DNA of 64,000 bases from Candidatus Multivoradales bacterium (lineage in GTDB: Bacteria; Acidobacteriota; Thermoanaerobaculia; Multivoradales; JAHEKO01), in contig CBDCXM010000009.1 of the NCBI GenBank assembly GCA_965223855.1, positions 512,001-576,000 on the forward strand, written 5' to 3'. Positions 11,676 to 15,999 of the stretch are shown here, piece by piece. The notes beneath the pieces were generated by a model, which was not told the origin of the DNA, did not search any database, and saw nothing but the letters and a program-made list of their open reading frames with translations. Made by a program: the position numbers and the translations under genes. Position 1 is the stretch's first letter; each line of letters begins with the position of its first letter.

Positions 11676-11905
11676 GCGAGGGCAACGAGATTCCAGTCTC
11701 GAAACGCGGCCTTGGCTAGCCCCCTTCCCTTGCGGACCCGCCCAGGGTTCCAGCCCAGAAGTCGGCCCAGCGCATCAGGTAGGACTCGTAGTCGAGAGCC
11801 TTGTCGCAGCTCTACTTCGGCACTGTGGGGTGACGAGACCCGGAGCCCCCGGCCGCCCCTCGGGCTCAGGGACGTGCACCCCTTGCTATGCTTCTCCCCG
11901 AACCG

Positions 11906-13129
11906 ATGAGACCGATCCGCTACGCCGCATGTCTGCTGGGGTTCGTGATCGCGCCTGCGGCCGCCGACCAGGTCCCGGTTGGCGAGCCCTTCCTGATCGC
12001 CCAGTTCGAACAGGGACAGCTGCGACTGCTGGACGCCGCCTCGGAGGGAGACGGAACGTTCGTCGTGGTCTGGTCCACGACGGCAACCGCCGACAACGAC
12101 AGCGTCGTCCAGGGACGTCGCCTTACCGACCGCGGTGCCGCGCTCACCGACGTGTTTGCCATCAGTGAAGACACGACCGGCAGTCGTTGGACGCTGGAAG
12201 TGGCGACCGACGCCGCGGGCAACTTCGTCGTCGCCTGGGCCAGCAGCCAGACCGGCGAGCACGCGGTCTTCGCGCGCCGGTTCGAGGCCGATGCAACTCC
12301 TCTCGGCGGCGAGTTCCAGGTCAACACGGCAACGATCGCCAACCTGGCTGGACCGACCGTGAGCAGCAACGCTGCCGGAGACGTCGTCGTCGCCTGGGGA
12401 GGCTTCTCGGACGGCGTCCTCGCGACGGTGTTCGATTCCGCAGGCTCCACCACCGTTCCTGAGTTTCTGGTCAACGACCCGACCACGCCTCCCGGAGCCT
12501 CCTTTCTCGACGTCTCCGCTGGAATCGCCTCCGATCGCTCCTTCACAGTGGGTTGGGGCAGCCAGTTCCTCGGCGAGTCCGGCACGGACTCACAGCTGTT
12601 TCAACGCCGCTTCTCCGACACCGGCGTCCCCCTCGGCCCTGCGGTTCAGATCTCGGATGCGGGAGACGACGGCAACTTCGCATCCGCTCTGGACTCCGAC
12701 ATCGACCGCCACGACGAGTTTCTCGTCGTCTGGCACGAGCAACTCAACCTCGCCTTCGGCGCGGTCATGGGCCGCAAGACCGACACCTCCGGCACGCTCG
12801 GCCCGGCGAAGGTTCTTCATCCCGTCAGCGAAGGCCACTCTTTCTCGATGGCCGATACCGGCGAGTTCGTCGTCGTCTCGCAGAGCTACTACGCCAACCC
12901 GCCCTACAGCGGCGCCGTCTTCGACCGCGAAGGCGACCCGATCCGTACCTTCACCCTTCCGGCGGAACGCCTCGGAACCATCGTCGTCACCCGCACTCGC
13001 CCCTCGACGTACGTCCGATTGACCACCGACGACGAAGACAATCTGATCGGACAACTGTTCGTCGATCGCTTCTTCGCGGACGGATTCGAGAGCGGGGATA
13101 CGGGACAGTGGCCGGTGGTGGTGCCGTAG
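11906..13129 (+). CDS. Secreted repeat protein with C-terminal FADGFESGD motif
   Basis: Signal peptide MRPIRYAACLLGFVIAPAAA, repeated GxFVVxW and EFQVN units; extended -10 TGCTATGCT at 11884-11892. Confidence 0.75.
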   Translation: MRPIRYAACLLGFVIAPAAADQVPVGEPFLIAQFEQGQLRLLDAASEGDGTFVVVWSTTATADNDSVVQGRRLTDRGAALTDVFAISEDTTGSRWTLEVATDAAGNFVVAWASSQTGEHAVFARRFEADATPLGGEFQVNTATIANLAGPTVSSNAAGDVVVAWGGFSDGVLATVFDSAGSTTVPEFLVNDPTTPPGASFLDVSAGIASDRSFTVGWGSQFLGESGTDSQLFQRRFSDTGVPLGPAVQISDAGDDGNFASALDSDIDRHDEFLVVWHEQLNLAFGAVMGRKTDTSGTLGPAKVLHPVSEGHSFSMADTGEFVVVSQSYYANPPYSGAVFDREGDPIRTFTLPAERLGTIVVTRTRPSTYVRLTTDDEDNLIGQLFVDRFFADGFESGDTGQWPVVVP

Positions 13130-13143
13130 GGGACCGGTGGACC

Positions 13144-13614
13144 CCCCGAGGAAGAGGTTCCCCGAGGAAGAGGTTCCGGGTGATTGGTCAGGAGCCGGCA
13201 CTCGACGATCCGAACCCGGCTTGGATCGCCTCTTGTCGCCGTGCGCCACTCTTCGATCGCGCGGTTCACTCGCCTCTCGACCGGTGAAGCGCTGACGCGA
13301 AGGGCCTTGAAGACCCCCGAGAAGAGGTTCCGGGTGATTGGTCAGGAGCCGGCACTCGACGATCCGAACCCGGCTTGGATCGCCTCTTGTCGCCGCGCGC
13401 CACTCTGCGATCGGGCGGTTCACTCGCCTCTCGACCGGTGAAGCGCTGACGCGAAGGGCCCCCGAGAAGAGGTTCCGGGTGATTGGTCAGGAGCCGGCTC
13501 TCGACAATCCGAACCCGGCTTGGATCGCTTCTTGTCGCCGCGCACCACTCTTCGATCGCGCGGTTCACTCGCCTCTCGACCGGTGAAGCGCTGACGCGAA
13601 GGGCCTTCAAGACC
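13144..13614. repeat. Tandem array: 16-bp unit plus three ~145-155 bp units
   Basis: Units start at 13144, 13160, 13315 and 13460, each with CCCCGAG(G)AAGAGGTT; the long units differ by only a few substitutions. Confidence 0.95.
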
Positions 13615-13702
13615 GTCTCGCTCGTTCTCGGGAGTCCGGGCGCATAGAGGCATCTACGACCCCGGTGGGCGTTGAGAACAGCACACGCTGAGGGCTCTTC
13701 GT

Positions 13703-14617
13703 CTACCCGGCGCGCGCTTTCACCGGCAGGTAGCACGGTGGGCGGAAGCAGCCTTCGGGAAAGCAGACCTCTCGGCCTCTGCGAAGCTTCTCCGAAGCCG
13801 CCCGATACTCGACCAAGAACCATCGGTACGCTTCTTCCATCGCCCGACGGACCTTGCCGTCACAGGCATGGAATCTCGGCGCGGGCGTGCGCTCGAAGTG
13901 CTCAGGCCGGTCGTGAGGATCCTGCGCCAGGATCGCCTTGCGACCCAGCACCGGTCTGCCGGTCTTCTCGTGCGCCTTCTCGATGGCCCTGACCATCTCG
14001 CGGACTCGTTTGCGGTACTCGGCTTTGTCGAGGTGCTCCCAGCAAGGGATCGGAGTCAGCTCTAGACGATGCTTGGAGGCGAAGCGTGCCGGAGGATTCG
14101 CCTCTCCGCGGCGGGACGCTCGATACTGCTCCGAACGGTCGATCCACTCGCCTTCCATCGTCTCTCCCGAGAGAAGCGCATGCGTACTCGTCGCTCCAGG
14201 CCAGTGGCGCGGTGAAGCAACGAGTCGCTCCTTGACGCCCTGCTCGAGGAGATAGCGGAGTCGCCGAACGTGATCCTCAGGCGTTTCGCTGACGACGACA
14301 TCCGTGTAGCGACGGCCCCAGAAACGCTCCCTCCAGTCGTGCAGCCTTCCGATCTCGCGCGCGACATTGGAATTGACGTAGGCCATGAAGCTGGCCATCT
14401 GCTGAACGTCGGTAGGCCTCAGGAGCAGGTGAGCGTGGTTCGACAGGTAGACGAAGCCGCAGACCCGCATCCCGGTTCTCTCCTGAGCGCGCGCGAGAAT
14501 CCCGACGACGCGGTCGCGCACCTTGGCTGAGGGTCGCAACAGATAGCGGCCCTGTTGGGTCCGGACCGTGATCTCGACCAGCGACTCTTCCGGCAGGTAG
14601 CGAAGCTTCCTAGACAT
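13703..14617 (-). CDS. rayT: REP-associated tyrosine transposase-like protein (Y1 HUH) with C-terminal extension
   Basis: SNHAHLL (HUH), FWGRRY, RYLLEQGVKERLV (catalytic Tyr), WPGATS. Confidence 0.85.
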   Translation of the reverse strand: MSRKLRYLPEESLVEITVRTQQGRYLLRPSAKVRDRVVGILARAQERTGMRVCGFVYLSNHAHLLLRPTDVQQMASFMAYVNSNVAREIGRLHDWRERFWGRRYTDVVVSETPEDHVRRLRYLLEQGVKERLVASPRHWPGATSTHALLSGETMEGEWIDRSEQYRASRRGEANPPARFASKHRLELTPIPCWEHLDKAEYRKRVREMVRAIEKAHEKTGRPVLGRKAILAQDPHDRPEHFERTPAPRFHACDGKVRRAMEEAYRWFLVEYRAASEKLRRGREVCFPEGCFRPPCYLPVKARAG

Positions 14618-14660
14618 TCCATGGAGAAGGACGCGACCGAGGCGGAGAATCTTGCACTAT

Positions 14661-14712
14661 TCACCCGGCACCTCCTCTCGGGGCACCTCCTCTCGGGCAC
14701 CTCCTCTCGGGG
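14661..14712. repeat. Three tandem CACCTCCTCTCGGG(G) units forming the right terminus
   Basis: Copies at 14669-14683, 14684-14697 and 14698-14712. Confidence 0.95.
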
Positions 14713-15999
14713 CTGCTCGTCCGTGTCACACGGACCGTTGTTCTGGGAGGGCCGGCTGCCGATCATGCCTCAGGGCAGAGCCTGGCCCAGACACTGGTAG
14801 CACCGCCACCAGTAACTCCTGATGAGCCCTTGGCCCTAGCCGAGATCGGTGCAGTCCCTGAAGGCAGGATGGGCGACTCTGCACTCGCCTCTTTGCCGCT
14901 TGGAGTGAAGGAGCCTGACCTCGTCGTCGAGATCTTGGGCTCTCACATCATGGTCAAGGCGCGCAATCAGCAGGCTACGAGTGTCGAATGGTCACCCAAC
15001 GACGAGCTCAGAGAGTACCTTGAGGACAAGTACAAGCAGCTCGCCACACTGGCCAGAGGATCCGAGCGACTCGGACCACTGGAGGCCTCGGTCACAAACA
15101 CAGCAAGAGGCGTCGGCGTCTTCCTGTACCGCCACTTCGCTCCGCCGACATTCAAACAGGCACTCGAGCGGCTGCTCGTCGAGGCACCAGAAGGCGAGCG
15201 GCTGTCGCTTCAGATCTACTCAGACAACCCCCTCCTGCCGTGGGAACTCCTTGTTCCCGAGTTCGAAGCTTCTCCAAGGCGCTACTCGCATCTGTCTCTG
15301 GAGACCGGCATAAGCCGCTGGCACGCGAGGCAGGACGGCCAAGTCATGAGGAGCCCACCTCATAGACTTCAACTCGACGAGATCGTCGTCGTCGCTCCCG
15401 AATACTCCAGCCAGTTGCCTGCTGTGAGGTCGGAAGTCGAGATTCTCCGCGAGTTCGCAACCAACAGCACCCTTCAAGTAGCGACCGAGGTCGCGACCGC
15501 AGCGGCAGCCCTGACTCGGCTGCCCAAAGGCCTCCTCCACTTTGCTGGCCACGGCAGGGTGGTTCGAGGAGATCTCTCGACACCGGCCTATCAGCTGCTC
15601 CTCGATGACGACCAGCAGCTCTCGGTTGACCAATGGCGTGGCTCAACTAGTTCCTCGCTGTCAAGTCCGGCCCTAGTCTTCTTCAACGCCTGCGATGTGG
15701 GGCGTTCAGGGACCTCAGCCAGCGTTGTCGATGGGTGGGCACCAGCGCTCCTAGACGCCGGGGCCAGCGGCTATCTCGGCGCGCTCTGGCCAGTTACCGA
15801 CTCTGCGGCCGGCGCCTTCGCGAGACGCTTCTATGAGACCTTGGCCGAGCAGCTTGAAGGTGGCTCCGCGGCCAATGTGCTAGATGCTGTGGCGGCTGCC
15901 AGAGAGCTCTTCCTTGAAACTGGAGACCCAAGCTACGCCGCCTACGTTTTCTACGGCGACAGCGAACTATCTCTCTCCATCGACGACGGATCAGGCTGA
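14713..15999 (+). pseudogene. CHAT (caspase-HetF) domain protein, probably 5'-truncated
   Basis: LPWELL, LHFAGHG, VFFNAC, GALWPV motifs (His/Cys dyad intact). The frame stays open upstream of TTG 14830 into the RAYT terminus with no evident start or RBS. Visibly lower GC than the flanks. Confidence 0.7.

Follow-up and report, generated by a model that had tools for sequence, protein, structure and literature searches.

Polar arrays of end sequences at both inverted ends of a RAYT-like HUH/Y1 element family from Thermoanaerobaculia

Introduction

How does a short gene for a Y1 transposase-like protein come to be bracketed by several unequal copies of its own ends? The question is raised by a locus in a 64,000-nucleotide stretch of DNA (hereafter the window, to which bare coordinates refer) from a Candidatus Multivoradales bacterium of the acidobacterial class Thermoanaerobaculia (GenBank assembly GCA_965223855.1, contig CBDCXM010000009.1, positions 512,001 to 576,000). 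Here, a single HUH/Y1 gene lies between 25-bp inverted ends (13460-13484 and 14659-14683), together forming an element of ~1.2 kb (13460-14683) that is one copy of a multi-copy, RAYT-like HUH/Y1 family; outside both ends lie further, partial copies of the ends themselves. We find that such end arrays are a trait of the family rather than an accident of one locus.

Architecture of the element and its end arrays

Going outward from the inner left-hand end, which is the 3' end with respect to the gene, we encounter partial end copies of 145, 155 and 16 bp, and going outward from the right-hand end copies of 14 and then 15 bp (Table 1); these are the lengths that the initial annotation of the locus, made from the sequence alone, had given, and both the sequence and the repeat analyses confirm them. 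The outer edge of every extra unit is the terminus, whereas the inner starting point differs from unit to unit, just as that annotation had claimed in describing a shared terminus with variable inward lengths. We place the extra units outside the element proper, because the homology with the closest paralogs spans ~13457 to 14681-14685. The inner 3' end, taken outward along the gene strand as the reverse complement of 13460-13484, consists of AATCACCCGGAACC followed by TCTTCTCGGGG, and on the opposite side both of the partial copies begin at CACC, right behind the GG of the core.

Tandem Repeats Finder delineates three arrays: 13144-13177 (period 16, 2.1 copies, 100% match), 13160-13614 (period 145, 3.0 copies, 90%) and 14667-14713 (period 14/15, 3.2 copies). 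The large left-hand array can also be described as a 156-nt unit present three times, from 13160, 13314 and 13459 (spacing 154 and 145), with 92% and 94% identity to the first copy. A degenerate 23-mer that captures the terminus is found with no mismatches at 13315-13337 (+), 13460-13482 (+) and 14661-14683 (-), and with three mismatches at 13161-13183 (+); dinucleotide shuffles of the sequence yielded no match in 100 out of 100 cases. The proposal of a RAYT-like HUH/Y1 gene with inverted ends is borne out.

Table 1. Features of the element and of its flanking end arrays, in window coordinates.
Positions	Strand	Feature	Basis
13144..13159	-	16-bp partial 3'-terminus copy, the outermost; gene strand AACCTCTTCCTCGGGG	Sequence, Tandem Repeats Finder, repeat search
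13160..13314	-	155-bp partial 3'-end copy (core, tail and 130 bp of subterminal DNA), stopping at the terminus	Repeat analysis
13315..13459	-	145-bp partial 3'-end copy, stopping at the terminus	Repeat analysis
13460..13484	-	Inner 3' inverted end: tail 13460-13470, core 13471-13484	Sequence, motif scan
13485..13702	-	3' non-coding part of the element, fast-evolving, no Rfam match, no conserved fold	Paralog comparison, Rfam, alifold
13703..14617	-	HUH/Y1 gene, 304 aa, RAYT-like predicted fold	Open reading frame, Pfam, structure
14618..14658	-	5' leader with the motif CTTGCAC at 14651-14657 (outward)	Sequence, paralog flanks
14659..14683	+	Inner 5' inverted end: core ATTCACCCGGCACC 14659-14672, tail TCCTCTCGGGG 14673-14683	Sequence, motif scan
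14684..14712	+	Two partial 5'-terminus copies, 14 bp (14684-14697) and 15 bp (14698-14712)	Sequence, repeat analysis

The family within the genome

The source genome (4.52 Mb in 9 contigs, 68% G+C) holds 29 matches to the protein, of which 19 are near full length at 54-94% amino acid identity; four of these 19 have one in-frame TAG within the aligned range. When read in gene orientation, the paralog flanks examined resolve into three subfamilies with distinct cores, namely ATTCACCYGGNACC (that of the window element), ATTCGTGTGGCAC and GTATTCCTGTGAGG (ATTCCTGTGACACC at the 5' ends). The family-wide form of the core is roughly ATTC-N5-6-GG-NACC(T)C, and each end joins such a conserved core to a variable tail of ~10 nt, which usually closes in a G run. 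The layout is common to the three subfamilies: the 5' core lies ~40-100 nt upstream of the start codon and the 3' core ~230-300 nt past the stop, with tail units or longer suffixes repeated outward in all three. The motif CTTGCA(C), again read outward, adjoins the 5' core only and was seen in the three subfamilies as well as in other metagenome-assembled genomes (MAGs), with the CTTGCAC form of the window leader adjoining that core in most members of the family; it might act as a promoter element or provide a second site for protein binding.

Tandem repetition is strongly enriched in these flanks: those of the 19 paralogs contain 25 exact tandem arrays, whereas random stretches of equal total length average 1.6 and never exceed 5 (60 draws). 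Large duplications ending exactly at the terminus, like those to the left of the window element, are present in three other paralogs (143, 211 and 188 nt), and four of the 20 tandem arrays with a period of at least 60 in the whole genome lie within 100 bp of the 3' side of a Y1 gene. The rule of a fixed terminus and a variable inner start also governs junctions elsewhere, both in the 19 paralogs and in relatives from other MAGs.

The cores also occur without the gene. At up to one mismatch the three cores give 75 hits genome-wide (reversed controls, 0). They form 48 clusters, half of which (24) are over 1.5 kb away from the nearest Y1 gene; the copy number lies in the tens and not in the hundreds. 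Eleven of the 48 clusters contain multiple cores, eight of these being gene-less, and in all 11 the cores are co-oriented; because of this co-orientation we regard the gene-less clusters as solo end arrays and not as REPIN-like doublets or pairs resembling miniature inverted-repeat transposable elements. We also considered whether they are decayed elements and rejected this, gene-derived sequence being found in just one of the 24 (C9:1583444), with the remainder sharing at most ~78 nt, and mostly at most 50 nt, with the elements. No replication-strand bias was seen among the gene-less clusters of contig C9 (7 versus 10). A hairpin between tail and core was likewise entertained as the recognized structure and rejected, the core with a 14-nt tail folding like the same core with shuffled tails (mean z 0.08, n=45).

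A few further observations concern the paralogs. Y1 genes and fragments cluster locally, three or four per 5-15 kb (C9:1063314-1078515, C9:3179184-3184779 and C9:3053057-3057417, the last including a degenerate copy with three in-frame stops at C9:3056719-3057417), which hints at local hopping or tandem gene duplication. Long-period arrays also occur at a distance from Y1 genes, as at C9:2810042-2811252 (114 nt x 10.6), C2:28753-29757 (213 nt x 4.7), C9:1980905-1981871 (179 nt x 5.4, ~2 kb from a gene-less end array) and C9:308641-309237 (172 nt x 3.5). Some 25-60 nt past the stop codon a stem-loop was noted by eye, differing in sequence between paralogs (e.g., C9:92884, C9:1993130 and C9:1069707); at C9:1993130 the restart point of the 211-nt duplication falls within the 5' arm of this stem-loop.

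Relatives in other genomes

Database searches with the protein recovered 804 proteins at E <= 1e-3, nearly all of ~301 aa and aligning end to end, some of which have been named RayT by the Joint Genome Institute. The 59 related loci that we drew from named genomes come nearly all from Thermoanaerobaculia or other Acidobacteriota MAGs, with several per MAG, and include two from a Gemmatimonadota MAG and two from a Ca. Multivoradales chromosome. At the stricter threshold of E <= 1e-20, matches were found in seven of 301 sampled genomes of the phylum, all belonging to the order of the window genome itself. In a crude scan demanding 12 of 14 core positions, 12 of the 35 loci with usable flanks had clear inverted cores at distances matching expectation, and three more were recognized by eye; all 15 have tandem tail units, although their sequences are quite different. 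The architecture of the window element is therefore shared by relatives in other MAGs, with end sequences of their own. The arrays may be elaborate, with up to about ten units of varying length in L046 and L049 and a ~190-nt duplication in L068, and at least one exact tandem array is present in 40 of 54 elements.

Tempo of array turnover

Comparison of the paralogs sets the age of the genes against that of the arrays. The closest paralog pairs have a dS of 0.11-0.15 and the remaining pairs exceed 0.7, with dN/dS values of 0.05-0.25 among the near-full-length paralogs indicating purifying selection. On the other hand, the duplicated units are 97-100% identical internally in three paralogs; in the window the large units are 92-94% alike, the two outer ones resembling one another more than either does the inner copy. 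By these measures of divergence the paralogs are old and selected, and their arrays young.

A direct view of turnover comes from contig C4 (10,036 bp), which is collinear with C9:85480-94932 at 96-98% identity; it may be a strain variant retained in the assembly or else have arisen by a recent segmental duplication of 9.4 kb. The alignment between the two breaks exactly at the 3' array, which measures 56 nt in one version and 100 nt in the other and differs by whole end units, whereas the 5' ends are identical. Whichever the origin of C4, the 3' array has been remodeled since the two versions split; heterogeneity of just this kind had been predicted for the arrays, and it is in the end array that this second version of a paralog locus departs from the first. 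In C4 the match to the Y1 gene is split in two (residues 1-179 and 176-304), suggestive of a frameshift.

The enzyme

The protein passes the cut-off of the Pfam family Y1_Tnp (PF01797; 30.9 bits versus 23, E 3.3e-7, residues 31-119). The residues expected of an active HUH/Y1 enzyme are intact: H61 and H63 (within SNHAHLLL, family-wide SNH[AC]HLLL) and Y122 (within RLRYLLEQG) are invariant among 120 aligned family sequences. The putative catalytic Y122 falls in a model helix spanning residues 113-129 together with the nearly invariant Q126, so that the tyrosine motif, YLLEQG, is of the Y-x3-Q and not the Y-x3-NP form. Of the NCBIfam models the RAYT model NF047646 scores best (47.8 bits, E 1.3e-12), below its equivalog cut-off of 80, and the IS200 model NF033573 reaches 17.9 bits, far short of its cut-off of 55.

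The AlphaFold2 model (pLDDT 91.2, its predicted local distance difference score) places the fold closest to that of the E. coli RAYT: the top PDB match by Foldseek is 4ER8, the E. coli RAYT on a REP (repetitive extragenic palindrome) hairpin (E 1.7e-7, template-modeling score 0.74), and by VIA-align the same structure is followed by the TnpA of IS608 (Z 14.8, root-mean-square deviation 2.8 and 157 aligned positions over model residues 1-244, versus Z 9.2). A sequence search of the PDB gave ISDra2 matches only, and weak ones (E 0.065).

The initial annotation had also called for a 150-aa C-terminal extension. There are indeed ~140 extra residues, conserved across the family (TPAPRFHA, FPxGCF), and part of them do form a predicted C-terminal helix and tail; since the alignment with 4ER8 runs over residues 1-244 with 157 aligned positions, the remainder is inserted within the fold. 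No Pfam domain was found in residues 141-304, and an ESM Atlas search with this region returned only unnamed clusters (best score 0.91), which serve as no more than a lead.

Junctions with a fixed distal and a preferred proximal edge

If the distal edge of the units is fixed at the terminus, the proximal edge is by no means random. In 68 of 89 arrays the first base of the repeated segment is G, and in 38 the first two are GG, as against 35% and 12% of random genomic tandem repeats. Among the 84 short arrays, the periods of which are mostly 12-17 nt, 45 begin no more than 8 nt away from the conserved ACYY motif, the majority 1-3 nt before it. Microhomology of 1-6 nt, mostly of G and in most cases of 1-3 nt, accompanies 36 of these 45 ACYY-type junctions. 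The nine that have none are instructive: seven of them still begin 1-3 nt before the AC, which argues for a position-specific site. Taken together, the junction sequences point to a preferred second site just before NACC. Members with termini other than G runs, such as L048 (...GGATCA) and L063 (...CGGA), keep the same unit boundaries, and the 155-nt unit of the window and the 143-nt unit of the paralog C9:3053057, which are independent events, restart at the same homologous point just past GAGAYGG.

What builds the arrays

A precedent for unit addition by a Y1 enzyme is available in E. coli, where TnpA-REP cleaves at a bare CT dinucleotide to either side of a REP and joins strands into multi-REP products in vitro (as described in the main texts of Ton-Hoang et al., PMC3333891, and PMC8266576). 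In the model put forward there for bacterial interspersed mosaic elements (BIMEs), a low-specificity Y1 enzyme adds tandem units through cleavage, priming and strand transfer: the first cut supplies a primer; the newly made strand is then cut in turn, freeing a 3'-OH for attack on the first phosphotyrosine, which adds one unit (PMC3333891). We lean towards the view, which we hold to be the probable one, that the window element is a Y1 element akin to TIRtrons and REPtrons, the enzyme of which cleaves and transfers strands to add end units, in the manner modeled for BIMEs. Specifically, the enzyme would bind the core and cut precisely at the tail end; it would also cut, with less precision, upstream, most commonly at the core/tail boundary just before NACC and otherwise past a GG up to ~250 nt further in. 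The 3'-OH from one site might then prime synthesis or attack the 5'-phosphotyrosine of the other, and the segment between the two sites would be added again, per the scheme of Ton-Hoang et al. With the first cut at a variable upstream site and the second at the precise terminus, the scheme would yield x[a..b][a..b]flank, and its repetition could stack end suffixes into polar arrays at both ends, and sometimes at sites that have no gene. We infer, rather than observe, that it is the enzyme and not host replication that makes the junctions, and likewise the polarity of cleavage. The mechanism of the initial annotation, repeated transfer of a terminus cut at a fixed site, is a reasonable one; however, since the BIME scheme gives exactly the observed products, it amounts to a variant of a published model and not a new principle.

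Several considerations weigh against this account. To our knowledge, the Y1 enzymes studied so far recognize hairpins; here, there is no conserved end hairpin, the core and tail folding no better than shuffles in the 45 ends mentioned above, alifold on seven aligned paralog ends gave no consensus structure, and a test for covariation between C/T and tail was not significant. No empty site that would fix the mobile boundaries was found, either among 31 relatives searched by DNA, one of them an unpublished genome on which none of our claims depends, which gave the gene only, at up to 73% identity and with flanks not conserved, or among four same-genus genomes searched by protein, where both neighboring genes were hit on different contigs only. 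The genome has no near-identical gene copies at separate loci, the top identity between copies being 94% over the full protein (98% over residues 1-179 is reached with C4, a variant of an existing locus); in consequence, there is no sign of recent whole-element transposition. The counted loci are mutual relatives, and so the counts are not of independent events; moreover, if noisy long reads underlie the assembly, the G-run lengths may be affected by homopolymer errors. Finally, the G microhomology at most core-type junctions would also be expected from replication slippage.

A bolder proposition, which we put forward tentatively, is that the family represents a hitherto undescribed, hairpin-free kind of Y1-HUH element: the 300-aa enzyme, with its extra conserved domains, would read a linear 14-nt core and make two fixed cuts bracketing the 12-17-nt tail module, with modules and longer fragments being excised and re-inserted at termini as tiny transposons, and the hypervariable tails being swapped or rewritten.

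Slippage itself is the strongest of the competing explanations, and we judge it unlikely as a full account. Replication would stall at the terminal G run, at a nick or at a bound protein, and the nascent 3' end would re-pair with an upstream GG and copy the end segment once more without any strand transfer, the HUH enzyme being at most a nick-maker or a roadblock. Slippage at G runs does explain much of the junction data, namely the prevalence of G microhomology, the predominance of short periods of 12-17 nt and even the shared restart point, the GG of the core being the nearest upstream GG to a G-run terminus. Yet it sits poorly with the nine junctions devoid of microhomology, seven of which keep the restart position, and with the unchanged unit boundaries in L048 and L063; further, with a genomic G+C content of 68%, G runs alone can hardly account for units of 143-211 nt ending exactly at the terminus in four of 19 paralogs.

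Several insertion sequences target their own ends. An element of the present family could similarly have transposed into a resident end, followed by recombination between the 1.2-kb direct repeats that would leave the displaced end fragment outside the new end. The local grouping of paralogs (four copies or fragments in C9:1063314-1078515, others at 3179184/3183558/3184630) speaks for such events, as does the array at C9:92884, which interleaves two end variants with different tails. We nevertheless deem this improbable: several arrays are 97-100% identical internally, yet near-identical full copies are lacking; each unit, of up to ten small ones per end in L046 and L049, needs a full insertion and a precise deletion; and no intermediate, in the form of two full copies separated by an end fragment, was present among the paralog flanks examined.

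That the arrays are an artefact, or a collapsed or expanded repeat, of a single assembly can be virtually dismissed: the large left-hand array (13160-13614) is, as expected for a repeat, bridged by no short-read contig from public runs, the contigs breaking within repeats, but the same architecture recurs in numerous assemblies that other projects produced independently, complete chromosomes among them, and two short-read contigs from public runs cover 14580-14764 and 12900-13196 with zero differences, so that the right-hand 14/15-nt array and the left-hand 16-nt array are reproduced and neither is peculiar to the assembly. Four public sequencing runs, all stored as contigs, contain the locus, and no RNA run was listed among them.

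Relation to known Y1 systems

Among the closest known systems are the REPtrons (RAYT/TnpA-REP). The likeness lies in a Y1 HUH protein whose closest solved structure and best NCBIfam match are both RAYTs; in a short repeat that flanks the gene in inverted copies and is also clustered elsewhere in the genome; and in intragenomic copies that are diverged and under purifying selection. It extends to the tandem unit number, which varies between locus versions as described for BIMEs in the text of PMC3333891, and to the two-sided, low-specificity cleavage and the unit-addition model published there, which fit the junctions of the family. The differences are as follows: the ends have neither a GTAG foot nor a conserved palindrome, with the core starting in ATTC; the tyrosine motif is Y-x3-Q where class 2 TnpA-REP, as described in PMC6006769, has Y-x3-NP; the protein falls below the curated RAYT cut-off and, at 304 aa, carries ~140 additional family-wide residues; the genome has 19 near-full-length copies, whereas REPtron genes are mostly one per genome and housekeeping-like; and the arrays are direct, polar, variable-length end suffixes in place of REP/iREP pairs.

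As regards the inverted ends, the nearest published counterparts are the TIRtrons (TIRYTs), RAYT-like genes with terminal inverted repeats (TIRs) in place of REPs. According to the text of Di Nocera et al. 2013 (PMC3733652), these repeats form a moderately abundant family, occurring singly, paired or dimeric, or grouped, and one genome can carry several differently decorated copies. Most TIRYTs are placed by Quentin et al. (main text of PMC6006769) in subclass 2.1, with helix-turn-helix (HTH)-type C-terminal domains and GGGGWSAS in the TIR. The window element shares with them a RAYT-like gene bounded by non-REP terminal inverted repeats. However, its ends read, by eye, CGGGTGAT/CGGGTGAA where the TIRYT has GGGGWSAS; residues 141-304 have no Pfam match in contrast to the HTH-type C-terminus of subclass 2.1; its family is confined to the window's own order among the sampled genomes of the phylum; and the text of PMC3733652 holds no description of a polar accretion of variable-length end suffixes.

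With the IS200/IS605 group (TnpA of IS608 and ISDra2) the element has in common the Y1 HUH fold, with the Pfam Y1_Tnp cut-off passed, and a target-site duplication is likewise not visible, by eye, at the window copy. The Y-x3-Q motif is found in IS608 TnpA too. By analogy, short cleavage motifs may be picked relative to the bound end. The ends of IS200/IS605 elements differ from each other and are hairpinned on one strand, whereas those of the window family are inverted copies in which no subterminal hairpins were found; its protein is twice as long and falls below the cut-off of the IS200 model; near-identical copies are lacking (nearest dS 0.11-0.15); and the gene-less clusters have no bias in orientation to replication.

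Lastly, the class 3 TnpA-Y1 proteins of Quentin et al. 2018 (PMC6006769) are described in its main text as intermediates between insertion sequences and REPtrons, with Acidobacteria among their phyla, several copies per genome and many repeats; they have a median length of 178 aa, the motifs NHVH, W[TA] and YV[VI][AENY]EQ, and a CnGA foot in their flanking structures. By that description, the window family resembles them in the phylum and in a Y...Q type motif, and differs in its NH[AC]H, WG and Y[LI]L[EA]QG motifs and in a core that begins with ATTC.

In light of these comparisons, the claim in the initial annotation of a distinct end-amplifying HUH system appears overstated, the TIRtrons (PMC3733652) and the BIME unit-addition model (PMC3333891) being already in print, to judge from their main texts. 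In a literature taken mostly as open-access main text, we found no account of polar end-suffix arrays at Y1 elements, of the window family or of non-palindromic core-plus-tail ends; to that extent, what is new is the family with its ends and with the suffix arrays, polar and of variable length, that adjoin each inverted end, and the TIRtrons and the BIME amplification model are what was known.

Neighboring genes and non-coding features

To the left, a 413-aa open reading frame (11888-13129, +) ends 15 bp before the array; it has no Pfam match and is one of a large group of paralogs in which a module of ~120 aa is repeated internally, with 39 matches within one same-genus genome. Downstream, a gene at 14830-15999 (+) codes for a CHAT-domain protein (Pfam CHAT E 1.3e-21, with a weak Peptidase_C25 match). 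An Rfam search of 12900-15000 at E <= 1 gave no match.

Conclusions

How REP- and BIME-type repeats are made and amplified by Y1 enzymes is still an unsettled matter. The family described here supplies dozens of natural junctions that point to both of the presumed cleavage positions, and these sit in elements whose gene is still intact and under selection, and the junctions turn over quickly. They lead to a specific prediction of one cut after the last base of the tail and another just before NACC. The TIR-flanked Y1 elements are thereby extended to a little-studied, mostly uncultured class of Acidobacteriota. Should the enzyme indeed read a linear core and not a hairpin, it might offer a new sequence specificity for HUH-based covalent DNA tags. 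On the bolder reading put forward above, the arrays would constitute a natural, readable record of single cleavage and joining events, and the family would be a missing link between insertion sequences and the REP/BIME systems.

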